Source: Polyangiales bacterium
GTDB lineage: Bacteria > Myxococcota_A > Polyangia > Polyangiales > Polyangiaceae
Assembly (NCBI GenBank): GCA_038231275.1
Contig: JBBRLQ010000021.1
Location: 32,001 to 96,000, forward strand
Reading direction: 5' to 3'
DNA length: 64,000 nt
Part shown: positions 46,627-60,397 of the stretch, in pieces
Layout: the number at the start of each line of letters is the position of its first letter
Position numbering within the stretch: the stretch's first letter is position 1
Position numbers and translations under genes: made by a program
Notes under the pieces: model-generated
What the model was told of the DNA's origin: nothing
Databases searched by the model: none
The model's input: only the letters and a program-made list of their open reading frames with translations

Positions 46627-46699
46627 GGGCCTATAGCTCAGTTGGTAGAGCTGCGGACTTTTAATCCGTAGGTCGTGGGTTCAAGTCCCACTGGGCCCA
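46627..46699 (+). tRNA. tRNA-Lys (anticodon UUU), 3' CCA not encoded
   Basis: Acceptor GGGCCTA/TGGGCCC, D arm GCTC..GAGC, anticodon arm GCGGA-CTTTTAA-TCCGT, T arm GTGGG-TTCAAGT-CCCAC. Followed by CAG rather than CCA. Confidence 0.97.
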
Positions 46700-46755
46700 C
46701 AGAGAGCAGATCGCTGGTGATTGCTGCGATCGACGATGGGGTCCGCCGGGCTCCG

Positions 46756-47574
46756 TCAGTGACACGCGATGTCGGTGTTCGCGCCGTTCGGGGTCCCCAA
46801 GAAGAGCCCGCCGTATTCCTGCGACGACCACCCCCAGCTCGCCCATGACGTGCGCGAAGAGGCCGGGCACGCCGCGGGAAACGCCATCGACGCTCCCGTA
46901 AGCCACGGCAAGGTCGCGTCGTACGTCAGCGTGTCGATGGTCACGCCGCCGAGTGACACCGTGATCGTGTCGCCGGAATTCTTCAGAACGTCGCTCGCGC
47001 TCCCCGCGAACTCGTACACCCGTGCGCCGAGACCATGGTTGATCAACGGATCGGCGCTGTCGGCGACCACGAACGAGCCGCCGGGCGGAAGGAGCGTGGT
47101 CGTGGTGATGTCGAGGTAGTCGGAGGTGGTGCCGCGCGGCGACTCGACGCGGAGCCCGCGGAGGTCGAGGTTGCACGCTCGGGTACTTCTCACTTCGAGC
47201 CACTCGCCACGGTCCCCGCTGCCGATCTGAGAGGCGATCATGATTTCCACGATGACGAGATCGCCCGGCCCCAGCGATCCGCAGTCGGAAGGAGCCGAGT
47301 CGACCGGCGCGTCGACTCCGCCGTCCGAACGCGGTCCGCCATCGGGAAGCGGCCCGCCATCCGGAGGCGGCGGAGGTGGAGGCAGAGGCGATCCATCGTC
47401 TGCCCGACCGCTATCGCGGTGATTGATGACCTGTCCGTCGATCCCGGGGGAGCCGCTGTCCTCCAGCGTGTCTGGCGGCGCGGTTCCCGGATGGAGATCG
47501 TCGAGATCGCTCCCCCCGAGTAGCGCCGAGCACCCTGAGAGAACGGCAACACCTGCGAGAATGAGTGCGCGCAT
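46756..47574 (-). CDS. Lamin-tail-domain (LTD) lipoprotein
   Basis: VLSG-C lipobox, DGG/Pro tether, LVIVEIM...GEWLEV...LKNSGDTI...GTPNGAN. Confidence 0.85.
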   Translation of the reverse strand: MRALILAGVAVLSGCSALLGGSDLDDLHPGTAPPDTLEDSGSPGIDGQVINHRDSGRADDGSPLPPPPPPPDGGPLPDGGPRSDGGVDAPVDSAPSDCGSLGPGDLVIVEIMIASQIGSGDRGEWLEVRSTRACNLDLRGLRVESPRGTTSDYLDITTTTLLPPGGSFVVADSADPLINHGLGARVYEFAGSASDVLKNSGDTITVSLGGVTIDTLTYDATLPWLTGASMAFPAACPASSRTSWASWGWSSQEYGGLFLGTPNGANTDIACH

Positions 47575-48575
47575 CAGAACGCCCCCGTCGCGCCGACGCC
47601 GCCACCGCCAGGCAACAGGAGGGGCCCAATCGACGCCGACTTCGGAGCCGGCTCGCTCGGTGTCGTCAGCAGAAACACACCGACGCCGACCCCAACGAGG
47701 CCCGCGCCGACGCCGAGGGTGCCCAAGAGCGACAGCGTCCGAAACTGATCCGCCGCCGCGAGCCCCTCGCCGTCGCACGCGTGCGACGCGTCGCAATGAG
47801 CGAGCGCGTCGCGTTTCTTTTGAGTGGCGAGGATTGCCGTGACGCCGCCGAAGATGAGCGCGGCGGCGCCGGTACCCAAGGTCACGAAGGCCGCCGTTTG
47901 CCGCGTCGAGGGCGGCCGCGACGAAGAGGCCGTAGACGCCGCGGTCGCGTGCGGCGGCGCAGCGGCGACCGGAGTCGCGACGGAGTCCGGCGTTGAGGGG
48001 GCAACGGGCGGAGAGACTGTCTCGAGGGGCGTCGGCGCGACTGCGATCTCCGCCGTCTCGGACTCCTTCAGTGCGATGGGGTAGGTGCGGTCCTTGCGCT
48101 CCGGCGTTCGAACGACGAGCGTGTGCTTGCCGGGGTTCACACGCGCGGTCGCTCCAAGCGAAACGGGCGCCCCGTCGAGCAGGACCTTGGTCCCCTCCGG
48201 CGAACCGGGCACGAGCGAGACGCGTAGGCGGCCCACGCGGCGCTCGAGCCGCATGGCCTGATCCAGGCCGAGCGGGGCGCGATCGTCGCCGGGCTGCAGC
48301 ATCGCCGACATCTTCTCCAGCTTCGTGAGCGCCGCGGTGAAGTCGCCGGCGTGCTCGTCGCATTGGGCGAGGTTAAGCAGTGTCCCCGCCGCCGGATCGA
48401 GGCGCATGCTCTCCGCGAACTTCGGACATCCGGTGGCGAAGTCGCCGCGCGCAACCGCTTCGCGGCCCTCGCGGAACAACGCATCGGCGGACGCTTTGCG
48501 GGCACCTTGCGCCGCCGCCGAACCGGCAATGGCGAGCGACAGCGCGACGAGGGAGGCAGAGAGGCGGTGACGCAT
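47574..48575 (-). CDS. Exported TPR + PEGA-like protein with C-terminal hydrophobic helices
   Basis: Signal peptide, ADALFREGR...CPKFAESMRLDPAAGTLLNLAQC, VLLDG...VNPGKHTL; ends GVGATGAF. TGATG-coupled to the LTD gene. Confidence 0.85.
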   Translation of the reverse strand: MRHRLSASLVALSLAIAGSAAAQGARKASADALFREGREAVARGDFATGCPKFAESMRLDPAAGTLLNLAQCDEHAGDFTAALTKLEKMSAMLQPGDDRAPLGLDQAMRLERRVGRLRVSLVPGSPEGTKVLLDGAPVSLGATARVNPGKHTLVVRTPERKDRTYPIALKESETAEIAVAPTPLETVSPPVAPSTPDSVATPVAAAPPHATAASTASSSRPPSTRQTAAFVTLGTGAAALIFGGVTAILATQKKRDALAHCDASHACDGEGLAAADQFRTLSLLGTLGVGAGLVGVGVGVFLLTTPSEPAPKSASIGPLLLPGGGGVGATGAF

Positions 48576-48579
48576 GGAT

Positions 48580-49905
48580 CTACTCACGGCGGTCATAAGG
48601 GTTGGAACGTGGTGAAGGAGGGGTCGGTCGCGTCGGTGTCGCCTTGCCGATGCCGAGCACGCGATTGGTCTTGGTGGGGGCCGGCGGCGGAGGCGGCGAA
48701 TCGGTCAGTGACGCTCCCTCCGGCTTTGGAGCGGCGTCGATGGGGACGGTAGGCGGCGCGTTCGCCGGCGGTGCCGCGTTGACGGTTGGAGGGACGGGCA
48801 CAGCAGCCGACGCCAACTCGGCGCGTCCAACGGCCTGCGCCGAGTCGGTGCGAACGGCGTCGACGAGGATGGCAAGGCCGACGACTGAACCGAGAGCGAG
48901 CACCACCGCGCCCGCCAGCACGATCGGCGAGGGGCCGGCGGTGTGGAGCGTGGGCACCGTCGGCTTCGGTGGGAGGATGAGCGTCGCGGCGAGCCTGAGG
49001 TCCACCGAGTCGATCGCGGCGGTCGTACGCATCACCGATGCGGACGTTGCGGCGCTCGCACGGGCGCGGGCGAGCGCTTCCTGCATGGCTTTCGCACCGG
49101 GCCAGCGGTCGGTTTTCTCGAACGCGACCGCGCGGTCCACGAGGTCTACGACGTCTCCGGGAAGATCGGGGCGAGTGGCCGCGAGGCTCGGGAGCGGCTC
49201 GGTCATCGCTGCGCAGAGCTCCTCGTTGACGGTCTCGCCTCGTCGAGGAGGATTGCCCGTGAGCAGCGCAAAAAGGACCGCGCCACAGGAGTAGACGTCC
49301 GATCGGGGGTCCACTTCGCCGAAGCGCCCGCGTGCGAGCTCGGGCGACATGAACGCTGGCGTCCCGAACGACGAAGCCTTGGCCGGGGCGTCGTTGTCCA
49401 TTTCGCGCTCGGCGACGAAGGCGCTTCCGAAATCGAACAGCTGGATCCGTCCGTCCCTGCGCAAGAAGACGTTCTTGGGTGCGACGTCGCGATGCTGGAT
49501 GCCTTGCGCGTGCGCCGCACCAAGCACGTCGAGCACGCAGTCGGTGATTCGAAGCGCTTCGTCGACCGCAAACGGCGAAGCGGTCCGTTCGAGCTTCTCG
49601 TTGAGCGTCTCCCCATCGAGCCTCTCCATCACGAGGTAGACGGATCCGTCTTCGGCGACATCGTCGTCGAGCACGCGCACGACCCCGTCGTGCCTGACTC
49701 CGTTGACGGCGTAGCCTTCACGCAGAAACGCCGCGCGCACGGCCCGATCCGCGGCAAACACCGGGTGGAGCATCTTGAGAGCTCCCTTGCTCCGATTTCG
49801 GTGCGTCGCGGAGTAAACCGCGGCCGTCGCGCCCACGCCGAGCAACGCATCCAGCCGCCATTTCCCGCCGATGAGCGCGCCGACGCGTGAGCTTGCGGAG
49901 GTCAT
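48580..49905 (-). CDS. Membrane Ser/Thr protein kinase
   Basis: LGVGATAAVY, ALK, HRDVAPKN, DFG, GTPAFMSPE, DVYSCG; TM; Pro-rich tail ending NPYDRRE. Confidence 0.92.
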   Translation of the reverse strand: MTSASSRVGALIGGKWRLDALLGVGATAAVYSATHRNRSKGALKMLHPVFAADRAVRAAFLREGYAVNGVRHDGVVRVLDDDVAEDGSVYLVMERLDGETLNEKLERTASPFAVDEALRITDCVLDVLGAAHAQGIQHRDVAPKNVFLRRDGRIQLFDFGSAFVAEREMDNDAPAKASSFGTPAFMSPELARGRFGEVDPRSDVYSCGAVLFALLTGNPPRRGETVNEELCAAMTEPLPSLAATRPDLPGDVVDLVDRAVAFEKTDRWPGAKAMQEALARARASAATSASVMRTTAAIDSVDLRLAATLILPPKPTVPTLHTAGPSPIVLAGAVVLALGSVVGLAILVDAVRTDSAQAVGRAELASAAVPVPPTVNAAPPANAPPTVPIDAAPKPEGASLTDSPPPPPAPTKTNRVLGIGKATPTRPTPPSPRSNPYDRRE

Positions 49906-49981
49906 CGCCCGTTGACGAGCACGGAGCATGCCGAAGGTATGGCAGCGTGTTCTTTGTACCTACACTCGGCAACGGGCGGCG

Positions 49982-50081
49982 GCGCAACCCCTGAAGCGCA
50001 ACCCGTTGCCCTCGAGGCGCACGCGCGGGGGCGGCGTTCGGCGCAAACGCGCGCACCCCATCGTGGTCCAGCCCCTGCAAC
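49982..50081 (+). promoter_or_regulatory. Enhancer + sigma54 promoter cassette, copy 1
   Basis: GCGCAACCC x2 + GTTGC at 49982-50009; TGGTCCAGCCCCTGCAA (GG-N10-GC) at 50064-50080; duplicated at 51331-51431. Confidence 0.75.
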
Positions 50082-50092
50082 CGGTGGGGCAA

Positions 50093-51298
50093 ATGATGCT
50101 TCGCAAGCTCCTGGTCTGCGCGACGTTGGTGAGCGCGTACGCGGGGGCCACGGGGTGCTCCTCTCACGCCGACAGCAGCGGCGTTGCAAGTGGAGGCGAA
50201 GCAATCAACACGAGCGACCGGCCGCCGCCCGGCGGCAAACCCCGGCCGGCCCAGCTGAGAAACCCAGACTACGGGTTCTGGGACCCCGGTCTCGTCACGG
50301 CGACTGCCCGTACCGCGTACGACGCGCAGGACATGGGGACGCGCGCGAACCCGATCGTCCCCACCGCGTGCCTTTACCCCGACACCACCGATCCGATCCT
50401 CATCAACGGGGAGGCGTGTGGGAACGTCCACACGCTGCCGCCCTTCGCGAACGCGAACGCGTGGACCAACGCGCCGTCGTGGCCGCTGAAAGACTTCTGG
50501 GTCGTGCAGATGAACGATGAGGGGGCCTTCGACGCCTGCAACAGCGGCCCTCCCGACGCGTCCGTCCAGCGTTCGAGTCCGGGCAACGGGATGATGGGGC
50601 TCACACTCCTCGACACCGGCGAATCGCTCACGCGAAGTCACCTCGTCCTCAACTACACCTTCAACGGACCGTGCGAGCAGGCCGCGCCGTTCACGCGCAT
50701 CCCGTTTCTGTCGTTTGGGGCGCACAAGAGCCGCGGCAACGGCAAGCCGATCGCCGCGATCCACCCGAGCCCCGGCGTTCCGAGCCACGTGAGCTTCACG
50801 CTCAAGCTCTGGGACATCAGCTCCAACGCCACCCCGATGGCGTCCGAGCTGTGGACGGTCTCGTCGTGGGGCGGCATCACGCGGATGATCTTCATCGCCG
50901 TCGGTCGCTCGAATCTGTCCTTCGGGCACGTGCACCGGCATTGGAACTGGCCCATCGCCCAGAGCTTCCTCGCTCCGGGAGCCGACATCGCCTACTACGA
51001 CAGCGAAGAGCTCGAGGCCCGATGCCCGGGCGCGATGACGGCGACGAGGGACGGCCGGGCGGTCTCGACGTCGCTCTTCTCCACCGACGATCACGCGACG
51101 AATCTGGGGAGAGACGTCAGCTACGATCTCGACCTCGAGGCGCTCTACGGGTGTGCGAGCGCCGATGGCTCCTTCGATGCGCCGGCCCCCTCGACCGCGG
51201 ACATCCCGGTCGACGGCGTGTTCTGGTCCAACGAGATCGCGGGTAGAGGGAGCCCTTCGTGGCTTTGGACAAGCGTTCACGGAATGGACGTGCACTGA
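50093..51298 (+). CDS. Hypothetical lipoprotein
   Basis: MMLRKLLVCATLVSAYAGATG-C; beta-rich, aromatic-rich body; no family recognised. Confidence 0.8.
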   Translation: MMLRKLLVCATLVSAYAGATGCSSHADSSGVASGGEAINTSDRPPPGGKPRPAQLRNPDYGFWDPGLVTATARTAYDAQDMGTRANPIVPTACLYPDTTDPILINGEACGNVHTLPPFANANAWTNAPSWPLKDFWVVQMNDEGAFDACNSGPPDASVQRSSPGNGMMGLTLLDTGESLTRSHLVLNYTFNGPCEQAAPFTRIPFLSFGAHKSRGNGKPIAAIHPSPGVPSHVSFTLKLWDISSNATPMASELWTVSSWGGITRMIFIAVGRSNLSFGHVHRHWNWPIAQSFLAPGADIAYYDSEELEARCPGAMTATRDGRAVSTSLFSTDDHATNLGRDVSYDLDLEALYGCASADGSFDAPAPSTADIPVDGVFWSNEIAGRGSPSWLWTSVHGMDVH

Positions 51299-51330
51299 AG
51301 TGGAGCGAAGCGCAGCGGAGCGAAACGCCC

Positions 51331-51431
51331 GCGCAACCCCCGAAGCGCAACCCCGTTGCGCTCGAGGCGCACGCGCGGAGGCGGCGCGGGTGTAGACGCC
51401 CGTACCCACATGGTGGTCCAGGCCCTGCAAC
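51331..51431 (+). promoter_or_regulatory. Enhancer + sigma54 promoter cassette, copy 2
   Basis: GCGCAACCCC x2 + GTTGC at 51331-51359; TGGTCCAGGCCCTGCAA at 51414-51430; ATG 12 nt after the GC. Confidence 0.75.
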
Positions 51432-51440
51432 GCGCTAGGC

Positions 51441-52553
51441 ATGCGCAGGACCCCGACCATCACCACGCCTTCACCGGCGTCCGGCTCTTCTTCTGTTTCT
51501 GTTTCGTCGGACACCGGACGGGCGCGCCGGGTGGTCGGGCTCCTCGCGTTCTTGGTCATGGCCGTCGCGCCGGCGGCGTGCGTCACCAACGGACCGGACG
51601 ACACGCTCGCAGGCCTGCCGCCGGGCGACGCCCTCCCCGACACGGGGGTCCCGCCCGACGGCGCGGGCGCGGCGCGCCGTTGGGGTTGGGGGCAAGCGAC
51701 TGGGAGCAGCGACGCGCACACCGACGGCGGCGACGGAGCCGCGCCGTCGGACGGCGGCGTCGCGTCGGCGTGCGGCGCCTGCGCCGCCGGCGAGGCCTGC
51801 TCGCCCGCCGGAAAATGCGCGCCATGCACCAAGGCATGCGGCGCGAACGGGGTCTGCGCGCTCTCCTGGGAGACCGGGCCGCACTGCCAGTGCGCGCCGG
51901 GCTACTACGAGACGCTCTCGGGGTGCGCGCCGGTCGCCGGCAGCCCTTGCGCCGGGATCACCTGCGGCGGCCACGGGACTTGCTACGCGGCACCTCCCTT
52001 GTTCAGCCCCGAGTGCCACTGCGAGGGGGACACCGTCAGCTACGGCCTCACCTGCTCGCCGCGCAAAACGATCCGCTGCATCGACCGAGACGGCACGCTC
52101 AAGGACAAGGGCGCGGTCCGCTGCAGCGCCGACGACACGACGTTCGAGGTCTGCCGCGACGGCGACGGCGACGGCGCCGTGGAGTGGGTCGCGAGCGGCA
52201 AGCCGAGCTGCGCCGCGGGCCCCGCCTGTTCGCAGTGCCTAGAAACCAAGTGCGACAACGGCGATGGTACCGGCGGCCAGGCGTGCCCCACCGGCACCGT
52301 CTGCATGGGGATGGTGCACGAGACCCCCGTCTACCGCTGTCAGCCGTCGTGCGACTGCACCAACTGCGGCACGTGCGATCCGGGGCAGTTCCACGGCTAC
52401 CAGCGCGCGTGCGGATCGGACGCCGACACCTTCGAGAACCCCACCATCGTTTGCAAATCCCCGTGCCCGCACGCCGGCGACGGGTGCTTGCCCTATGGCC
52501 AGTTCGCCTTCTGTTTCCCGAACGAGGGCTGCGCCAGCGCAGCCCCGCGCTGA
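51441..52553 (+). CDS. Cys-rich EGF-like repeat lipoprotein
   Basis: APAA-C lipobox; EGF-like CGANGVC...CQCAPGY and CGGHGTC...CHCEG. Confidence 0.85.
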   Translation: MRRTPTITTPSPASGSSSVSVSSDTGRARRVVGLLAFLVMAVAPAACVTNGPDDTLAGLPPGDALPDTGVPPDGAGAARRWGWGQATGSSDAHTDGGDGAAPSDGGVASACGACAAGEACSPAGKCAPCTKACGANGVCALSWETGPHCQCAPGYYETLSGCAPVAGSPCAGITCGGHGTCYAAPPLFSPECHCEGDTVSYGLTCSPRKTIRCIDRDGTLKDKGAVRCSADDTTFEVCRDGDGDGAVEWVASGKPSCAAGPACSQCLETKCDNGDGTGGQACPTGTVCMGMVHETPVYRCQPSCDCTNCGTCDPGQFHGYQRACGSDADTFENPTIVCKSPCPHAGDGCLPYGQFAFCFPNEGCASAAPR

Positions 52554-52607
52554 CGCGGATCCGCGGAATTATCGGCTGCGCCCCGCGCGCGGTAAGCTTG
52601 GACCGGG

Positions 52608-53393
52608 ATGCCGACGCGCCTACGTTTCACCTTCGCCGCGGCGGCTGCGCTGCTGGTCGCCGCCACGCCGTCGGCGGCGCGCGCGGACGAAACCGTTCGG
52701 CGGTGCATCGCGTCCTACGAGCGCGCGCAGGTCCTCTCGCACCAGGGGCAGCTCGGCGACGCGCGGCGCGCGCTCTCGCAGTGCCTCGACGAGCGCTGCC
52801 CCGCCACGCTCCGCAAAGACTGCGGCGCGTGGCTCGCCGACGTCGAGCAGCGCCAGCCGAGCATCGTGGTGCGCGTCGAGGCGGCCAAGCCTGCGGCGAT
52901 TACGTCCGTGGAGCTCGACGCCAAACCGTGGGTGCTTCCGCCCGCAGGTCGGTCCGCGGAAGTCGACCCGGGGTCGCACGTCCTCACGTTGCGTACGGCC
53001 GAAGGGTCCGCGAGCGTGCGCTTCGTCGCGACCGAAGGACAGAAGCTGCAGTCGGTCTCGGCGCGCTTCGCGCCTCCGGCCGCGCCGACCGCGCCGCCGC
53101 TACGCGCCGAGGCGCGCCCGATCTGGCCGAGCCTCCTCCTCGCGGGGGTCGGCGTCGTGTCGGTCGGCTCGTTCGCGTTTTTTGGCCTCACGGGGCGCGC
53201 CGACCAGCGCGGGCTGGACGCGTGCGACCCGCACTGCACCCACGACGACGTGAGCAGGGTGCGGACCAAGTACATCGTCGCCGACGTCTCGCTCTTGGTC
53301 GCTGCAGTCTCGTTCGTCGCGTCGGCCGTGCTCCTCGCGACGGGCGGCGGCGACGCGCCTAGAGGAGCCGTCTCGTCCGGAGCCGCGCGGTGA
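52608..53393 (+). CDS. Exported Cys-containing TPR-like + PEGA-like protein with C-terminal hydrophobic helices
   Basis: Signal peptide; CIASYERAQ...QCLDERCP...DCGAWL; VELDA...EVDPGSHVL; two hydrophobic helices around CDPHC. Confidence 0.85.
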   Translation: MPTRLRFTFAAAAALLVAATPSAARADETVRRCIASYERAQVLSHQGQLGDARRALSQCLDERCPATLRKDCGAWLADVEQRQPSIVVRVEAAKPAAITSVELDAKPWVLPPAGRSAEVDPGSHVLTLRTAEGSASVRFVATEGQKLQSVSARFAPPAAPTAPPLRAEARPIWPSLLLAGVGVVSVGSFAFFGLTGRADQRGLDACDPHCTHDDVSRVRTKYIVADVSLLVAAVSFVASAVLLATGGGDAPRGAVSSGAAR

Positions 53394-55201
53394 CCGACGA
53401 GGTCCGGCAGCTCGGGCGCTACGCGATCCACGACTCGATTGCGTCCGGCGGGATGGCGCGCGTGCACCTCGCGCGGCAGCTCGGTTCCGCCGGCTTCGCG
53501 CGCCCCGTGGCGATGAAGATCCTGCACCCCAACCTCGCCTCGGATCCGCGCTTCGTCGCGATGCTCATCGACGAGGCGCACCTCGCGGCGCGCATCCGGC
53601 ACCCGAACGTGGTCCCCATCCTCGACATCGTGACCGCCGATCGCGAGATCGCCCTCGTGATGGAGTTCGTGCACGGCGAGTCGCTGGACAAGCTCATCGC
53701 CGCCGCGCGCAAGGCCGGCGAGCCGATCGAGGCGGGCGTCATCTCGACGGTCATGGTCGGCGCGCTCGAAGGCCTGCACGCCGCGCACGAGGCCAAGGCG
53801 GAGAGCGGCGCGTCGCTCTCGATCATCCATCGCGACGTGTCGCCGCACAACGTGCTCGTCGGCGTGGACGGCGTCACGCGCGTCACCGATTTCGGCGTCG
53901 CCAAGGCCGCCTCGCGTCTCCAGAGCACCGAGACGGGGGAGCTCAAGGGGAAGTTCGCGTACATGGCCCCCGAGCAGCTCGAGGCGAAAGCGCTGACCAG
54001 GGCCGTCGACGTCTGGGCGGCGGGGCTGCTGCTCTGGGAGCTCGTGGCCCGGCACCGGCTCTTCGTCGAGGAGTCGGTCGATCTCATTCGCGCGATCCGG
54101 AGTAAATCGATCGTCGTGCCGTCGTCCTCGGGCGGGACGGACCTCTTCGACGCGATCGCGATGCGCGCGCTTTCGCGGGACCCGCGCCAGCGCTTCGCGA
54201 CGGCGCGCGAGATGGCCGAGGCGATCGACCGCCAGTGCCTCCCCGCGTCGGCGCGAGAGGTTGGCGCGTGGGTGGAGCGCCTCGCCGCCGGCGGGCTGGC
54301 CGCGCGCTCGCAAATCCTCGCGCGGATCGAGCGCGAGGCGAGCGCCCTCAAGGGGACGGGCGGCGCGTACGCGTCGGAGCTCGCCGCGCTCGGCGTCGAC
54401 GTTGCGCCCGGGCCGCCGCCGGAGCGGTCGCCGTCGCCGTCGACGCTCGATTTCCCTGCGGACGCCCCGTTGCCGACGCGGCCGGTGCTCGGGCGGCAGG
54501 CACCGCCCGCGGCCGTGACGCGTCGGTCCGGAGGTCGGCCGGCGCCCGACGACGCCCCTGGGGACGCCGGCTCGGCGACCGTCGCGGCGACGCCCAACGT
54601 CCTTGGGGCGAAGCGCGCGCCTCCGAGCGATGGAATGACGATGCTCTCCGCCGGGCATGAGCCCACGTCGTCTCCGCCGTCCACGGCCGCGCCGGTCGCC
54701 GTTCGCATCGTCCCGCCGCCGACGGCGGCCGCGGTCCAGCCTACGCCCGCGGCGGTCGAGACCCCGACGGTCACGACGGTCGCGTCGACGCGGCGGCGCC
54801 GGAGGATCCTCGTCGCGATTGCGGCGATCGCCCTTTCGCTCGTCGTGCCGACGGCGTTCGTCCTCCGCGCGCGCAGGCTTGCCGACCTTCGCCGCGCCGC
54901 GCGTGAAGAGACGCCCACCCCGATCGCGTCCGTGGTCGCCGCCGCGTCATCCGCCGCCACGTCGTCCGCCGCTGTGGCGATCACGCCTGCTCCGGTCGCG
55001 TCGAGCGCGGCGGTGGCCAGCGCGGCGCTCGCGCCCCGCGCGGGCGGGGCGAAGGGGCCGCGCCCACGCGAGCGTCCGTCCGGCCCGCGCCCGGCACCGA
55101 GCGCGGCGGGCCCGCCGCCGGACCACTGCAACCCGCCCTACTCGGTCGGGCCGCCGCCCGACTTCATCCGGCACCCCAAGCCCGAGTGCTTCGAGCGCTG
55201 A
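53390..55201 (+). CDS. Membrane Ser/Thr protein kinase
   Basis: IASGGMARVH, VAMK, HRDVSPHN, DFG, GKFAYMAPE, DVWAAG; TM; tail CNPPY...KPEC; GTGA-coupled to the upstream gene. Confidence 0.95.
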   Translation: MTDEVRQLGRYAIHDSIASGGMARVHLARQLGSAGFARPVAMKILHPNLASDPRFVAMLIDEAHLAARIRHPNVVPILDIVTADREIALVMEFVHGESLDKLIAAARKAGEPIEAGVISTVMVGALEGLHAAHEAKAESGASLSIIHRDVSPHNVLVGVDGVTRVTDFGVAKAASRLQSTETGELKGKFAYMAPEQLEAKALTRAVDVWAAGLLLWELVARHRLFVEESVDLIRAIRSKSIVVPSSSGGTDLFDAIAMRALSRDPRQRFATAREMAEAIDRQCLPASAREVGAWVERLAAGGLAARSQILARIEREASALKGTGGAYASELAALGVDVAPGPPPERSPSPSTLDFPADAPLPTRPVLGRQAPPAAVTRRSGGRPAPDDAPGDAGSATVAATPNVLGAKRAPPSDGMTMLSAGHEPTSSPPSTAAPVAVRIVPPPTAAAVQPTPAAVETPTVTTVASTRRRRRILVAIAAIALSLVVPTAFVLRARRLADLRRAAREETPTPIASVVAAASSAATSSAAVAITPAPVASSAAVASAALAPRAGGAKGPRPRERPSGPRPAPSAAGPPPDHCNPPYSVGPPPDFIRHPKPECFER

Positions 55202-55234
55202 ACCGCGCACCCCCGGATCGGCTAGTATTCGAGG

Positions 55235-56134
55235 GTGAAGGTGACGGCACATCGGGCGCTCGGCCTGTCCGCGGTCATCGCGGCGTGTTCGCTCACGCCG
55301 CTCGATCACTACGACTCGCAGAACGGATCGAGCGACATCGACGCGGGCGATGCCACGTCGGGCGAAGGGGCGGCGCCGGACGTCGCCCAGGACGCGCTTC
55401 CACTCGACGACGGCGGGGCGCCGGACGTCGACGCCGGCCCCGGCGCGCCGTGGACGCGCTACTCGCTCGACACGTCGAGCGCCGCCGGCGCGCCGTGGAC
55501 GGTGACGCCTCTCGAGCAGCTCTGGACCGGCCCGAGCGCGCCCCCTCCGCGGGGCGTCGTCGCAGCGGTGCAGCTCGTCGACTTCTCGCGCCTCCTCGTC
55601 ATCACGGGCGACGGGACGCTGTACGTTCAGCAGGACGGTGGCGTGTGGATGAGCCCGATGGCGATCACCGCCGCCTTCCCGCAGATCACCGGCCCGGTCG
55701 ACGGCATCACGCACATCCCGTACGCATTCGCCGTCACGCTGCAGCCGGACGCAGCGCTCGTGGAGTCGCTGCTCCTCCAGAAGGTCCCGCAGTACTGGTA
55801 CTACCAGTACCTGCCCAACGATCAGCGCGTCTTCGAGAGGACCGGCACGACGGTGGACGTGCCGCCCCCCGGCGCGCCGGAGGGGACCGGCAAGCTCCTC
55901 GCGAACTTCGAGATCCTGGACCTCGGCAACGCGGACGCGGCCGTCCACTTCCGCCGCTTCGACGTCTACGGCGACGGCAACGTGTACTCCTTCGACGCCG
56001 CCGCGACGTGGACCAAGACCCCGCTCGGCGCGCACCCGTTCTGGAGCGGCCGCGCCGGCGCCCCCGCGCTCGGGAGCATCCGCGCCACGTACTACGACCA
56101 GGGGAGCACGACCTTGCACGTGATCGGTCCGTGA
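55235..56134 (+). CDS. Lipoprotein, possibly a hemopexin-like beta-propeller
   Basis: IAA-C lipobox, DAG tether, then [31 protein letters not shown] segments. Confidence 0.7.
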
Positions 56135-56150
56135 GGATGTTAGCCTTCCG

Positions 56151-57515
56151 GTGGGAGGCGATCTCGACGTGACCAAAGCACGCGCCGATGACGCCACGCG
56201 GACCGTGACCGCCGCCGCCCGCCCGCGCGACGAGCGCGCGGGGCCGCGCCTCGTCGCTGTGTGGACCGACGGCTCCCTCATCCTGCCGCTCACGCCGGGC
56301 GCCGCACTGACGGTCGGACGCGGCGACGACGCGGACGTGCACATCGCCCACCCCTCGATGTCGCGTCTCCACGCCCGCCTCGAGATGGGGCCGCCGGTGC
56401 GCTGGACCGATCTCGGGAGCTTCAACGGGACCTGGGTCGACGGGCGGCGCCTCGGCCAAGGGGAGCGCGCGGAGCTCCCGCACGGCGCGGTGGCGGAGCT
56501 CGGGAGCGTCCTCGTGATCGTCGAGCCGGGCGCCTCCTCACCGACGCCGCCGCGCGCGCCGCGGGGCCGCGACGTCGTCGTCGTCGATGCCGCGACGGTC
56601 GCCGTCTATCGCCAGATCGAGCTCGTCGCGCAGAGCCACTTGAACGTGCTGCTCCTCGGGGAGTCGGGTGTCGGCAAAGAGCTCCTCGCCGCGCACGTTC
56701 ACGCAGCGTCGCGTCGCGCGGCGGGGCCGATGGTCAAGGTCAACTGCGCGGCGCTCGTCGACACGCTCCTCGAGGCCGAGCTGTTCGGGTACGAGAAGGG
56801 GGCCTTCACCGGCGCGACGCACGCGAAGATCGGGCTGCTCGAGTCGGCCAGCGGCGGCACCTTCTTCCTCGATGAGGTAGGAGATCTGCCGGCGGCGACG
56901 CAGACCAAGCTCCTGCGCGTCCTCGAGGCGAACGAGGTGCAGCCGGTGGGCGCGCTCAAGCCGAGGCCGCTCGACGTGCGCTACGTGTCGGCGACGAACC
57001 GTGACCTCCGCAAGCTCGTCGCCTCCGGCGCGTTCCGCGAAGATCTCTTCTTCCGGCTCGACGGCTTCTCGCTGCGCGTGCCCCCCCTCCGGGATCGCAT
57101 CGGGGACGTCCCGCCGCTCGTGGAAGCGTTCGTCGCCGACACCTGCGCGCGCGCCGGACGCCCGCCGCCACGCATCGCCGAAGATGCGATGGCGCGCCTC
57201 CTGTCCTACCCGTGGCCTGGGAACGTTCGGGAGCTCCGCAACGTCGTCGCGCGGAGCGTCGTGATGTCCGCGGCCGACACGCTTCACGCCGCGGATCTAC
57301 TCTTCGACGCCGAAGGGGGCTCGCCCGCCACCGCGCGCACGCTGAAGGAGGTCCCCGCCGCGGGAGGTGACGCCGCCGCGCGCGAGGCCATCCTGCGCGC
57401 GCTCGCCGAGAGCGCGGGCAACCAGAAGCGCGCCGCCGAGATCCTCGGCGTCTCCCGGAGGACGCTACAGTACCGGCTCGATGCGCTGAAGATCCCTCGC
57501 CCGCGCAAGGGCTAG
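56151..57515 (+). CDS. FHA-domain sigma54-dependent transcriptional activator (bEBP, Fis-HTH)
   Basis: FHA ([15 protein letters not shown]), [44 protein letters not shown]. Confidence 0.96.
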
Positions 57516-57586
57516 CAGCTCACGAGGGAACGATCGACATCGCGCGGCGGGCGCGCGGCGCTCCATGCCCCGAACCGGGTATCGTG

Positions 57587-58531
57587 ATGGGAGTGCTAGG
57601 CGTGAGGTCGATCTTGCCGCCCGTGCTCGCGGTGCTCCTTCTGACCCTCGCCGCTGCGGTGGCAACGGGGCCGCGTTGGCAGCGGCGCGTCGCCGTCGTG
57701 ATCGGCGGCGCGTCGATCTTCCTTCCTTGGCTCCTCCCGCCGGAGCCAGCTGTCGCTCGTGGCGTCCTCGCGCTCGTCACGAGCGTGTGGACGATGCGCG
57801 TCATCGATCTGCGCCGCGGGACTTGGTCATTGCCCGCGCGCGTCGTGCACACGTTCTCCGTCGTCGACACGCGCTTGCTCGTCCGCGGCCCCCGGCGGCT
57901 CGACGTCGCCGGCTTGTTCAATGCGCTGGGGTGGATCGCTGCGGCGGTCGCGGCGGCGTGGGGCCTCGGCGCGCTCCACGCCGCCGGCGGCGAGGCCTGG
58001 ATCACGCGATGGGCGATCGGCGTCGTGCTCGTGTACGCCGCGATCTCCACGCTCTATGGCATGATGGCAGTCGGGTATCGGGCGCTGGGCTTCCAGACGC
58101 CGCCGCTGCACGTCGCGCCGATCCTCGCGCGTTCGGTGCAGGAGCTCTGGGGCGAGCGATGGGCCAAGCCGATCAGTCGTTGGCTGGGCGAGACGTGCTT
58201 TCGTCCGTGGGCGCGCACGCGGCCGCTCGTCGGCGTGCTGGCCGCGTTCGCGGTGAGCGCGTTCTTTCACGCGTATGCGGTGTGGGTGGCGCTCGGCGTC
58301 TTCGATGGGCTCGCGCTGACGGCCGTGATGTTCGCGTACTTCGTTCTCCAAGGCGCGGTGATGAACGTCGAACGCGTGGCCGGCGTGCGGCGGTGGCCGG
58401 CATGGGCGGGGCACGCGTGGACCGTCGTCTGGATGCTCGCGTTCGCGCCCTTCTTCGTCGAGCCGGCGCTACGCGTGCTCGGGTACGCGGCGCCGGCGCG
58501 TGAGGGTGCGACGGTGTCGGCGCCGCGGTGA
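57587..58531 (+). CDS. MBOAT-family (wax-synthase-like, MBOAT_2) membrane O-acyltransferase
   Basis: Multi-TM; PILARSVQELWGERW and AFAVSAFFH (catalytic His). Confidence 0.8.
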   Translation: MGVLGVRSILPPVLAVLLLTLAAAVATGPRWQRRVAVVIGGASIFLPWLLPPEPAVARGVLALVTSVWTMRVIDLRRGTWSLPARVVHTFSVVDTRLLVRGPRRLDVAGLFNALGWIAAAVAAAWGLGALHAAGGEAWITRWAIGVVLVYAAISTLYGMMAVGYRALGFQTPPLHVAPILARSVQELWGERWAKPISRWLGETCFRPWARTRPLVGVLAAFAVSAFFHAYAVWVALGVFDGLALTAVMFAYFVLQGAVMNVERVAGVRRWPAWAGHAWTVVWMLAFAPFFVEPALRVLGYAAPAREGATVSAPR

Positions 58532-58779: not shown

Positions 58780-58795
58780 TGGCACGCGGAGTGCG
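58780..58795 (+). promoter_or_regulatory. Sigma54 (-24/-12) promoter
   Basis: TGGCACGCGGAGTGCG (GG-N10-GC), 13 nt before ATG 58808. Confidence 0.7.
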
Positions 58796-58807
58796 ATGCA
58801 CCCGGCC

Positions 58808-60397
58808 ATGATGACCTCGACGCGCAGCGTGTTCGCGATCGCCTCGCTCGCCCTCGCCTCCATCGCCTTGGGGTGCGGAGGCCACGACGGCGAATCCGCC
58901 TCCCAAGGTGTCTCGAGCGACGAGCTCGGCGCGGGGCGCTACGGCGTCGACTATTCGTTCGCGCGCCCTTCGCCCGCCACGCTGCGCGCCAACGGCTACA
59001 CGTTCGCCGTGCGCTACCTCAGCTACGAGCCGGCGAAGAACCTCTCGCGCGGCGAGGCGCAGGCGCTGATCGCCGCCGGCATCGACGTTGTCTCCAACTG
59101 GGAAGAAGGCGCGAGCGACGCCCTCAAAGGTTTCGCGCGCGGCGCGTCCGACGCCAGCGAGGCCGCGCGTCAGGCCGCGGAGGACGGCGCGCCCGCGTCG
59201 CGCCCGATCTACTTCAGCGTCGACTTCGACGTGCAACCGAGCCAGCTCGCCGCGGTCGAGGCGTACTTCGAGGGCGTTGCCTCGGTCATCGGCGTCGCAC
59301 GCACCGGCGTGTACGGCGGGTACTACGTCGTCAGTCAGCTCTTCGACGCCGGTCGAATCAAGTACGGCTGGCAGACATACGCGTGGTCGCGCGGCAAATG
59401 GGATCCGCGCGCGCAGGCGCGTCAGATTCAGAACAGCATCCTCGGCGGAACCTGCGACAAGGACCAAGCCATCGCCGCGGACTTCGGGCAATGGGGAAGC
59501 GGCGGCGCACCGAGCGGCGGCAAGGGCGTCGCGGAGATCGCGTTCCAGGCGAACACATCGAGCCTCTGGACGGTCGGCAACGCGGGCAACAAGGACTGGG
59601 GCCTCGGCATGATGCCCGGAACGAGCCCGAGCATCGCCGCGCTCGAAGGCGGCGGCTTCGAGGTCGCCTTCCAAGCGAACACCGGCGACCTCTGGACGGT
59701 CGGCGACGCCGGCAACACGAACTGGCACCTCGGAATGATGGCGGGCTCGAGCCCGGCGATCACCGGCCTGAAGGGCGGCGGCTTCGAGGTCGCGTTCCAG
59801 GCGAACACGACGAACCTCTGGACCGTCGGCAACGCGGGTAACAAGGACTGGGCCCTCGGCATGATGAAGGGCACGAGCCCGAGCATCACGGGGCTCGACA
59901 CGGGCGGCTTCGAGGTCGCGTTCCAGGCGAACACGACGAACCTCTGGACCGTCGGCGATGCGGGCAACCAGGACTGGCAGCTCGGAATGCACAGCGCATC
60001 GAGCCCCAGCATCACCGCGCTCGCCGGCGGCAAATTCCAAGTCGCGTTCGAGGCGAACACGACGAACCTCTGGACCGTCGGCGACGCCGGCAACAGGGAC
60101 TGGCAGCTCGGAATGTACGCGGGCACGAGCCCGAGCATCGCGGCGCTCGGCGGCGGCAGCTTCCAGGTCGCGTTCCAGGCGAACACGACGAGCCTCTGGA
60201 CCGTCGGCGACGGCGGCGACAAGGACTGGGGCCTCGGAATGATGCCCGGCTCGAGCCCGAGCATTTCGTCGCTCGGGGGTGGCGGCTTCCACGCGACGTT
60301 CGAGGCGAACACGACGAGCCTGTGGTCCGCCGGCACCGACGGAGTCACCGACATGCAGCTCGGCATGATGAAGGGAACCGGCCCGTCGGGATCCTGA
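58808..60397 (+). CDS. DUF1906 (Rv2525c/GH25-like putative peptidoglycan hydrolase) lipoprotein with 7 C-terminal 42-aa repeats
   Basis: ALG-C lipobox; GVDYS, FAVRYLS, KNLSRGE, VSNWE, PIYFSVDFD, TGVYGG, WQTYAWS. Confidence 0.88.
   Translation: MMTSTRSVFAIASLALASIALGCGGHDGESASQGVSSDELGAGRYGVDYSFARPSPATLRANGYTFAVRYLSYEPAKNLSRGEAQALIAAGIDVVSNWEEGASDALKGFARGASDASEAARQAAEDGAPASRPIYFSVDFDVQPSQLAAVEAYFEGVASVIGVARTGVYGGYYVVSQLFDAGRIKYGWQTYAWSRGKWDPRAQARQIQNSILGGTCDKDQAIAADFGQWGSGGAPSGGKGVAEIAFQANTSSLWTVGNAGNKDWGLGMMPGTSPSIAALEGGGFEVAFQANTGDLWTVGDAGNTNWHLGMMAGSSPAITGLKGGGFEVAFQANTTNLWTVGNAGNKDWALGMMKGTSPSITGLDTGGFEVAFQANTTNLWTVGDAGNQDWQLGMHSASSPSITALAGGKFQVAFEANTTNLWTVGDAGNRDWQLGMYAGTSPSIAALGGGSFQVAFQANTTSLWTVGDGGDKDWGLGMMPGSSPSISSLGGGGFHATFEANTTSLWSAGTDGVTDMQLGMMKGTGPSGS
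59534..60394 (+). repeat. Seven coding tandem repeats of 126 bp (42 aa)
   Basis: Consensus FEVAFQANTTNLWTVGDAGNKDWxLGMMxGTSPSIxxLxGGG. Confidence 0.95.

Follow-up and report, generated by a model that had tools for sequence, protein, structure and literature searches.

Two kinase–partner modules and an FHA-sigma-54 activator at one locus of an uncultured myxobacterium

Described kinase relays and the locus

Enhancer-binding proteins (EBPs) of sigma-54 that carry an FHA domain were reportedly described in Myxococcus xanthus by Jelsbak, Givskov and Kaiser in 2005: these proteins combine an FHA domain with an AAA+ domain bearing GAFTGA and a helix-turn-helix domain, and a Ser/Thr kinase is their expected input. 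The same domain set is found in the product of the last gene of the nine-gene cluster analyzed here, which occupies positions 46756–57515 of a 64,000-nt stretch from a Polyangiales bacterium (contig JBBRLQ010000021.1, positions 32,001–96,000, assembly GCA_038231275.1; the whole stretch is called the window below). Compared with the M. xanthus proteins, the activator of this locus is encoded in an operon with a kinase of a particular subtype, a partner protein (TP) and a lipoprotein, and a private two-copy cassette lies adjacent. TP denotes a secreted protein composed of a TPR (or Cys-helical) domain, a beta-sandwich and a helical hairpin, TP1 being of the TPR type and TP2 of the Cys-helical type. 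On the minus strand, the kinase STK1, TP1 and an LTD-like lipoprotein form module 1; on the plus strand, cargo1 and cargo2, each preceded by one cassette copy, are followed by TP2, the kinase STK2, the lipoprotein LP3 and the activator. Our main finding, as judged from sequence, concerns the kinase–TP pairs with their class-specific tail motifs: they constitute a signalling family that is very large and has gone unstudied, and both of its classes stand next to each other at this locus, one of them apparently wired to the activator and the cassette. The locus is a variant of known kinase-to-FHA signalling.

In myxobacteria both EBP and kinase families are expanded and kinase genes keep their local context, according to a review (PMC8538405). 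Threonine phosphorylation in type VI secretion systems (T6SS) offers the first close comparison: in TagQRST-PpkA-Fha1 of Pseudomonas aeruginosa and RtkS-PpkA-Fha of Serratia marcescens, TagR or RtkS serves as a dedicated accessory protein that attaches to the periplasmic part of an inner-membrane Hanks kinase, and the signal is then picked up by an FHA protein, with outer-membrane-associated components taking part in P. aeruginosa (PMC6082577). The FHA protein of that pathway is a component of the secretion machine, whereas here it is a transcription activator; PpkA has a folded periplasmic domain, whereas the kinases of this locus carry a Pro-rich tail with a terminal motif; and TP differs from RtkS and TagR in its predicted membrane anchoring and in its dozens of copies per genome. 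The resemblance is one of logic only, and no search for T6SS genes was made.

A second comparison is provided by GlnH-GlnX-PknG-GarA/OdhI of Actinobacteria, a relay of similar logic from a lipoprotein sensor via a membrane protein and a TPR-coupled kinase to an FHA effector, whose genes are co-conserved in one operon (PMC6069109, PMC9769921). There the TPR lies inside PknG, a soluble cytoplasmic kinase, and GlnX is polytopic, whereas here it is the kinase that crosses the membrane and a protein of its own that carries the predicted periplasmic TPR; GarA/OdhI, as FHA effector, regulates enzymes, whereas its counterpart at this locus is predicted to act with sigma-54. Unlike GlnH, the lipoproteins of the locus have no Pfam solute-binding match (LP3 has none at all, and the LTD-like lipoprotein matches LTD only). 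In M. xanthus itself, the three genes of the operon masA-masB-masK specify a membrane protein that has a periplasmic domain, a lipoprotein and a kinase associated with the membrane; the three products interact in two-hybrid assays, and no FHA-EBP is involved. MasA (505 amino acids) is described as having no homology to characterized proteins, and TPR and PEGA are not mentioned (PMC3546991). Our literature search, the scope of which excluded primary kinome and FHA-EBP studies, found no description of the TP family, the kinase–TP pair or the tail motifs, and none of sigma-54-driven leaderless mRNAs.

Kinase–TP pairs, tail motifs and the TP fold

The genome holds 285 kinase loci and 47 TP loci (tblastn), and 38 of the latter lie less than 1.5 kb from a same-strand kinase gene, against a background of about 14%; the kinase is upstream of the TP in 37 of these 38 pairs. 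Since pairs were found in other genomes too, the kinase, TP and lipoprotein unit put forward by the first-pass annotation does recur. The paired kinases are without a folded periplasmic domain and instead extend a Pro-rich tail of 56–128 residues after the transmembrane helix, and the end of this tail matches the class of the partner. Tails ending in C-x-P-P-[YFW]...K-x-x-C-COOH (motif B) accompany TP2-type partners: the motif is present in all 12 TP2-paired kinases, in none of the 25 TP1-paired ones and in five of 246 others, STK2 itself being among the five. TP1-type partners go with tails ending in hydrophobic-x-x-R-x-COOH (motif A), for instance NPYDRRE, DPFDQRF or GLFDGRK; in its loose form this motif occurs in 19 of 25 TP1-paired kinases, in 0 of 12 TP2-paired and in 45 of 246 other kinases. 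When the TP1-paired tails are aligned on the conserved Arg, D is at position -2 in 10 of 19 and F, Y or L at -3 in 11 of 19, preferences that were not seen in unpaired kinases. Furthermore, in other genomes a kinase lies upstream at 22 of 29 TP1-type loci, with R last or penultimate in 15 of the 19 tails called, and at 21 of 29 TP2-type loci, with a motif-B tail at 19 of the 29.

Distance matrices of kinases and TPs were moreover correlated (Mantel r = 0.635 for 31 pairs, a value reached by 0 of 2000 permutations), also within the TP1 type taken alone (r = 0.576, 0 of 2000 permutations). We read this as duplication and divergence of the kinase–TP pair as a unit, and the tail motifs as a sign that the extreme C-terminus of the kinase is under selection although the remaining tail is of low complexity.

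The source assembly of this uncultured myxobacterium comprises 9.28 Mb in 164 contigs at about 70% G+C, and the DNA of the stretch is listed in one sediment-metagenome DNA run. Based on open reading frame listing, third-position G+C and Pfam scans, the features of the locus were called as follows:

46627–46700, plus strand: tRNA-Lys, just ahead of the gene cluster
46756–47574, minus strand: LTD-like lipoprotein, 272 amino acids, lipobox LSGC; third gene of module 1
47574–48596, minus strand: TP1, 340 amino acids, signal peptide; TPR_2 at 17 bits, below the cut-off of 27
48580–49929, minus strand: STK1, 449 amino acids, Pkinase 122 bits, one transmembrane helix at 336–356
49977–50092, plus strand: cassette copy 1, upstream of cargo1
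50093–51298, plus strand: cargo1, 401 amino acids, lipoprotein with lipobox ATGC
51326–51440, plus strand: cassette copy 2, upstream of cargo2
51441–52553 (370 amino acids, ATG) or 51531–52553 (340 amino acids, GTG), plus strand: cargo2, exported, 37 Cys
52608–53393, plus strand: TP2, 261 amino acids, signal peptide, without Pfam match
53390–55201, plus strand: STK2, 603 amino acids, Pkinase 125 bits, transmembrane helix at about 479–498
55235–56134, plus strand: LP3 lipoprotein, 299 amino acids, lipobox VIAAC, without Pfam match
56151–57515, plus strand: FHA-sigma-54 enhancer-binding protein (the activator), 454 amino acids, with FHA, Sigma54_activat, AAA_lid_14 and HTH_8 above their cut-offs

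All nine genes of the first-pass annotation are present where it had placed them, and its gene list is correct, although the labels LTD, TPR and PEGA fall below Pfam thresholds in the proteins of the window themselves. The genes are tightly packed: TP1 and STK1 overlap by 17 nt, TP2 and STK2 by 4 nt, the first base of the start codon of the LTD-like lipoprotein is the last base of the TP1 stop codon, and no intergenic gap between cargo2 and the activator exceeds 54 nt. The coding regions of cargo1 and cargo2 are unrelated to each other. With a possible genomic island at the tRNA-Lys in mind, the G+C content was examined and is flat (0.67–0.77); a sigma-70 promoter scan of the window returned 0 promoters, and terminator-like sites (seven, with 4.0 expected) were uninformative throughout.

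Homology between TP1 and TP2 was established with hhalign (probability 97.8%, E 9.6e-13), and the two share their architecture except for the N-terminal domain. In TP1 the signal peptide is followed by three TPRs (31–121), a PEGA-like beta-sandwich (122–186), a disordered Pro-rich linker, a Gly-rich helical hairpin (helices 231–266 and 276–311, with C268-x5-C274 at the tip) and a C-terminal beta-hairpin, the protein ending in Phe. In TP2 a short 4-Cys helical domain takes the place after the signal peptide and precedes the beta-sandwich and a helical hairpin with C206-x3-C210. The structure model of TP1 has an overall predicted local distance difference test score (pLDDT) of 84.5, with at least 94 for the TPR region and at least 96 for the beta-sandwich, and residues 31–121 give VIA Z scores as high as 15.1 when compared with TPR superhelices, of which the top three chains align over 83–91 residues at a root-mean-square deviation (rmsd) of 1.5–2.2. 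TPR domains captured with bound C-terminal peptides, namely Hop/Hsc70, Sgt2/Ssa1, Tah1/Hsp90 and FLU/GluTR, are among the Foldseek matches to TP1, as is 9k1u_D, a chain of the RtkS-PpkA complex (rank 10, E 9e-4); Carboxypeptidases D and M appear only low in that list. Among 42 family members, 24 match TPR_2, seven match PEGA and three match CarboxypepD_reg, neither of the last two families matching TP1 or TP2. The earlier label TPR-PEGA is accordingly backed for the TPR of TP1 by model and family, but it does not fit TP2, whose N-terminal domain is not a TPR.

The family is wide within the phylum and poorly named. TP1 has 110 homologous proteins in a collection of 5.8 billion, and the named ones, which come from Polyangiaceae, Labilithrix and Sorangium, are called 'hypothetical', 'TPR repeat', 'PEGA domain-containing' and once potassium channel. 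The TP1 profile finds members in 229 of the 301 genomes that were sampled across the phylum, TP2-type proteins were recovered from 49 of the 60 other family genomes examined, and a TP2 query gave 16 tblastn hits in its own genome. As a separate observation, almost all of the 21 TP members displayed have a predicted beta-hairpin and then the ending ...G-x-F-COOH, Trp or Tyr being terminal in the others, and the Cys pair at the hairpin tip (C-x5-9-C between two Gly-rich helices) is nearly invariant among them. The C-terminal Phe and the Gly-rich hairpin are reminiscent of the C-terminal signal of outer-membrane proteins and of glycine-zipper lipoproteins such as SlyB; the VIA list for TP1 was filled by the TPR domain, so that the hairpin was barely probed.

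Both kinases look catalytically competent from their motifs, which are HRD146 and DFG166 in STK1, its beta3 Lys being read by eye in 'ALKML', and HRD147, DFG167 and VAMK at 40 in STK2. Pfam returned kinase-type families only, all on the N-terminal kinase regions, and the periplasmic parts consist of Pro-rich tails. That of STK1 has 93 residues and ends in ...NPYDRRE, while that of STK2 ends in C-NPPY-...-KPEC-FER, the Cys loop of motif B. An alignment of STK2 with six EBP-adjacent relatives showed the two tail Cys to be invariant and the T/P/S-rich linker between kinase domain and transmembrane helix to be about 120 residues longer in STK2; no conserved phosphothreonine docking motif was evident in the juxtamembrane region of these STK2-like kinases.

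The third gene of the modules is more variable. In 21 of the 33 modules with a called TP, a gene running in the same direction lies within 400 nt, and about 13 of these third genes encode a lipobox followed by C-x-x-[ILV]-[LVA]-[GD]-[GLVINF]..D, a D/G/P-rich linker and unrelated C-terminal domains; other modules have housekeeping genes next, for which reason we regard kinase and TP as the core and the lipoprotein as a frequent, variable addition. The lipoprotein of module 1 follows the pattern, its motif being at 47520–47532, with 'SALLGGSDLDD' after the lipobox Cys and then a D/G/P-rich linker; its LTD match reaches 27.8 bits (E 3.6e-6) against a gathering score of 34.3, and it has no sequence match in the PDB. 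Paralogues of it on contig C8 are 55% and 48% identical. On the same contig, 230654–234076 holds a paralogue of the whole set, with a kinase, a TP1-like protein and an LTD lipoprotein; its TP is 52% and its lipoprotein 55% identical to those of the window, and its kinase tail ends in ...VNPYDRRE, so that the entire three-gene module was duplicated. LP3, the putatively propeller-like lipoprotein of the first-pass annotation, matched only itself among the 5.8 billion proteins and had no PDB or Pfam match; for LP3 and cargo1, Protein Atlas scores were all 0.80 or lower and serve as leads only. Genome-wide, 35 candidate lipoproteins carry C-x-x-[ILV]-[LVAIY]-[GD]-[GLVINF], in most cases with D and a D/G/P-rich linker after it, and the motif is also present in other genomes; it might serve for sorting or tethering in general.

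These observations bear on whether TP is a signal relay at all. It might instead be a stabilizer, assembly factor or inhibitor of its kinase, with the lipoprotein as passenger or substrate, which we consider unlikely. The precedent would be RtkS, which binds PpkA through the periplasmic domain of the latter and is required to keep the kinase stable (PMC6082577), and the RtkS-PpkA chain does figure among the structural matches to TP1. The modest share of modules with a clear lipoprotein third gene (about 13 of 33) and the housekeeping genes following others would fit a passenger role, as would the occurrence of the post-Cys motif away from TP genes as well: of its 35 carriers, 10 lie within 600 nt of a TP. 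The same count nevertheless represents a strong enrichment, about 1% of the genome lying that close, and the beta-sandwich and the membrane hairpin with its paired Cys are conserved in TP, features that a stabilizer would not obviously need.

The FHA-sigma-54 activator, the cassette and the cargo proteins

The activator scores well above the cut-offs for FHA (53.7 bits, cut-off 20.7), Sigma54_activat (211, cut-off 20.2) and HTH_8 (44.7, cut-off 22), and has Walker A GESGVGK at 170 and GAFTGA at 217. The GR, SxxH and NGT residues of FHA domains bind phosphothreonine, and their counterparts G56-R57, S71-x-x-H74 and N92-G-T are intact. The genome also has rpoN (Sigma54_DBD, 219 bits, C8:218289-218768).

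The best homologue of the activator elsewhere is 54% identical, and that within the genus 49%. At 11 loci in 11 genomes encoding its closest homologues (45–54% identical), a kinase lies within about 2 kb in 10 cases, and nine of these 10 kinases are STK2-like, with 41–56% identity to STK2 against 29–37% to STK1; six of the kinases have a motif-B tail and six of the loci a TP2 hit. The gene orders are shuffled, with EBP-kinase-TP2, kinase-TP2 convergent with EBP and kinase divergent from EBP all occurring. In the genome studied here, 42 of 80 EBP loci carry an FHA domain (local hidden Markov model), and a kinase lies within 3 kb of 28 of the 42 FHA-EBPs as compared to nine of the 38 non-FHA EBPs. 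The co-occurrence of kinase and FHA-EBP expected by the first-pass annotation is thus found both genome-wide and at the homologue loci, and, as a type of arrangement, a kinase together with TP2 and an FHA-EBP is met with repeatedly. Viewed from the kinases, an FHA-EBP is within 3 kb of four of 13 TP2-paired, one of 25 TP1-paired and 26 of 244 unpaired ones. Because STK2-like kinases accompany the closest homologues of the activator, it most plausibly belongs to the plus-strand module, with the STK1 module as a bystander; the proposal that both kinase modules are tied to the FHA-EBP is not supported, TP1-paired kinases showing no enrichment near such activators. As a side observation, 42 FHA-EBPs among 80 EBP loci together with 285 kinase loci amount to an unusually heavy kinase-to-FHA-EBP wiring.

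Upstream of cargo1 and cargo2 lies a shared segment of about 110 nt, the two copies being 1350 nt apart and 89–94% identical in blocks of 28–35 nt, and the cassette before two unrelated cargo genes that had been noticed at first reading does exist. In each copy GCGCAAC occurs as two half-sites in direct orientation, accompanied by GTTGC(G/C)C in inverted orientation. In copy 1 the half-sites are at 49982–49988 and 49996–50002 and GTTGCCC is at 50005–50011, while copy 2 has GCGCAAC at 51331–51337 and the perfect palindrome GCGCAAC-CCC-GTTGCGC at 51345–51361. About 60 nt past the palindrome region both carry TGGTCCAG[C/G]CCCTGCA, whose GG-N10-GC spacing is that expected of a -24/-12 promoter. 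The -24/-12-like element of copy 1, TGGTCCAGCCCCTGCA, is at 50064–50079, its -12 C being 15 nt ahead of the ATG at 50093; that of copy 2, TGGTCCAGGCCCTGCA, is at 51414–51429, its -12 C being 13 nt ahead of the ATG at 51441. The putative sigma-54 promoter claimed for the cassette has the right spacing but is weak in its match to the consensus. A scan of the window with the strict sigma-54 consensus (at most one mismatch) gave four hits, with 2.15 expected, none of them at the cassettes.

Two other identities for the cassette were tried and rejected. A structured RNA or riboswitch was ruled out by the lack of an Rfam family and by ordinary folding (z-scores of +1.07 and -0.97 against shuffled sequences), and a repeat element by the presence of two copies only in the 9.28-Mb assembly, both at this locus. 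On these grounds the cassette is neither a mobile repeat nor a structured leader.

The spacing to the start codon was assessed genome-wide, counting the starts of long open reading frames with high third-position G+C. Of 301 sites matching at least nine of 10 consensus positions, 71 have a start codon 13–16 nt after the -12 C, compared with 16 at 5–12 nt and 28 at 17–24 nt, and the reversed-sequence control gave 0 of 542 at 13–16 nt. Among the 71 products, 54 resemble signal peptides, and a lipobox is present in 32. Promoters of the sigma-54 type thus characteristically abut the start codons of exported proteins here, which would imply that the mRNAs are leaderless or nearly so. Cargo1 and cargo2 fit this geometry. 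It is the conservation of the two copies together with the geometry, the products and the adjacent activator that leads us to call a putative promoter in the cassette.

A third -24/-12-like site, TGGCACGCGGAGTGC, was observed at 58780–58811; it matches nine of 10 positions, with the ATG 14 nt after the -12 C, and precedes a lipoprotein gene with an Rv2525c-like glycoside-hydrolase-like domain (94 bits; 58780–60397). The repeats upstream of it are different, TCGCGACGACGCGCG occurring twice, and a different activator is likely for this site, since its repeats differ from those of the cassette.

The activator, the kinases and the cassette could also be neighbours without a functional chain, the activator answering another kinase and the cassette being a duplicated promoter fragment of another EBP or not sigma-54-dependent; we think this quite unlikely. 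A genome with 80 EBP loci and 285 kinase loci offers many other partners, the separate strong site with different repeats lies 1.3 kb past the activator, and the 7/10 match leaves the promoter spacing uninformative at that level. In addition, cargo1, cargo2 and LP3 are patchy or orphan, and no conserved regulon can be traced through them. A mere neighbourhood would, on the other hand, not account for a cassette that is unique to this locus and lies directly upstream of the operon ending in the activator gene, nor for kinase, TP2 and EBP co-occurring in shuffled orders in other genera, nor for the more frequent kinase adjacency of EBPs that carry an FHA domain.

As to the putative output, cargo1 has 193 homologues at E ≤ 0.001, the best being 67% identical, and none of 36 family members scanned had a Pfam match. 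Its model (pLDDT 87.1; predicted template modelling score, pTM, 0.85) contains a GH12/GH11-like beta-jelly-roll at about residues 60–401, which matched Thermotoga Cel12A in Foldseek (E 1.3e-6) and GH12 of P. furiosus in VIA (Z 12.1, 208 residues aligned, rmsd 4.3). As modelled, cargo1 is a lipoprotein with a GH12/GH11-like (clan GH-C) fold. In the family alignment E381 is invariant and E143 nearly so, and they may be candidates for the two catalytic glutamates expected across the cleft in this clan. No cargo1 was found in 150 other genomes of the family. Cargo2 has the signal sequence 'LLAFLVMAVAPAAC' and 22 metagenomic homologues, mostly 59–79% identical (range 44–79%) over the C-terminal 58–79% of the protein, all named ones being called hypothetical; it was found in five of 250 other genomes of the order and in 0 of 64 of the family, and its PDB sequence hits were at chance level only.

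Two modules at one locus and their possible mechanism

In the first-pass annotation the nine genes had been taken as one complete unit. In a sister species (G019), STK1-TP1-LTD is about 90% identical and has different flanking genes, the counterpart of the left flank of the window being on another contig; cargo1, cargo2, TP2, STK2, LP3 and the activator are all missing from this neighbourhood, and homology stops at window position 49888, at the 5' end of STK1. The complete unit is consequently not conserved: the sister species keeps module 1 alone, cargo1 is absent from every other genome of the family searched, and LP3 is an orphan. Of the gene-neighbourhood survey that the first-pass annotation had called for, the recurrence of kinase–TP pairs and of kinases with FHA-EBPs came out positive, but the nine-gene set was not met again in the genomes searched.

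Two readings of the locus as a whole were weighed. That all nine genes form one trans-envelope system, both modules feeding a single FHA-EBP and the lipoproteins acting as surface sensors, seems very unlikely to us. The genes are adjacent, both kinases look competent, and the start of STK1 is about 50–70 nt from cassette copy 1, so that its promoter region overlaps the putative activator sites; module 1 is, however, maintained in the sister species without the other six genes, a single TP1-paired kinase of 25 lies within 3 kb of an FHA-EBP, and nine of the 10 kinases beside the closest homologues of the activator resemble STK2. The alternative is that two independent representatives of a single large and unnamed family of envelope signalling modules lie here, one of them with a sigma-54 output. 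In this joint reading the minus-strand STK1-TP1-LTD is a separate module brought here through rearrangement, the kinase tail is held by TP, and the plus-strand module feeds the FHA activator and the cassette; in our judgement it is evenly balanced between being right and wrong.

Following this reading of two modules, we propose that the N-terminal domain of TP holds the C-terminal peptide of the kinase in the periplasm and that TP thereby would couple the activity or stability of the kinase to what TP and its lipoprotein detect. Holding of the tail is the most economical mechanism, since the 3-TPR fold resembles domains that bind C-terminal peptides; the earlier suggestion that TP addresses the kinase tail accordingly gains indirect support from the match of tail and TP class, from their co-divergence and from the peptide-clamp-like fold. 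TP2-STK2-LP3 would feed the FHA-sigma-54 activator encoded directly downstream: STK2 may autophosphorylate on Thr, and the FHA domain of the activator may dock on STK2. The activator would then bind the GCGCAAC/GTTGCGC sites of the two-copy cassette and open the weak -24/-12 promoter, with the transcript starting at or next to the ATG. The output would consist of the GH12-like lipoprotein cargo1 and the Cys-rich exported protein cargo2. Additionally, because the gaps from cargo2 onward are so short, read-through from cargo2 probably also expresses TP2-STK2-LP3 and the activator, which would constitute a positive feedback.

Several observations weigh against this proposal. With respect to the cassette, the palindrome is perfect in one copy only, and at up to three mismatches it occurs in the window at chance level (17 found, 16.4 expected); the -24/-12 element matches only seven of 10 specified consensus positions, and at that match level there is no excess of start codons at 13–16 nt (548, compared with 1114 and 958 in the neighbouring 8-nt bins). 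With respect to the activator, the enrichment of FHA-EBPs near TP2-paired over unpaired kinases is marginal in this genome (p = 0.051), and an EBP was found within 1.5 kb at two of 29 TP2 loci elsewhere, where the flanks were too short to see past the kinase. With respect to the pairing, kinase and TP distances are uncorrelated within the TP2 type (r = 0.147, a value reached by 602 of 2000 permutations), the TP2-to-STK2 gene order of the window, alone reversed, is unique among the 38 pairs, and the match of tail and TP class may reflect joint duplication, that is linkage and not contact; Fisher p-values are overstated, as the paralogues are non-independent.

Beyond the locus, the kinase–TP pair may represent an undescribed receptor-kinase/co-receptor architecture of Myxococcota, an idea that we offer tentatively and doubt more than we believe. 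Here a Pro-rich tail long enough to cross the periplasm would carry a short C-terminal address peptide, to be read by the N-terminal domain of the membrane-anchored partner: hydrophobic-x-x-R-x-COOH for TPR partners, and a disulfide loop for Cys-helical partners. At least two such codes would separate dozens of pathways, subsets of which would be wired via FHA-sigma-54 to leaderless lipoprotein mRNAs.

Downstream of the activator, at a distance of 68 nt, a polytopic membrane protein with a weak match to MBOAT_2 (28 bits, cut-off 25) is encoded at 57584–58531; the DNA of this gene is 79% identical in a genome of the same genus (G098), where the search did not recover the activator cluster.

Myxobacteria possess hundreds of eukaryote-like kinases, and the inputs and wiring of almost none of them are understood. 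A partner encoded beside about 38 kinases, with a tail motif that predicts its class, could explain how many of these kinases receive signals and avoid cross-talk. The locus presents a compact and complete candidate pathway, leading from partner and lipoprotein to kinase, FHA-sigma-54 activator, private cassette and finally two exported proteins. Furthermore, the strong sigma-54 sites located 13–16 nt before the starts of exported proteins suggest a link between sigma-54 and leaderless translation.

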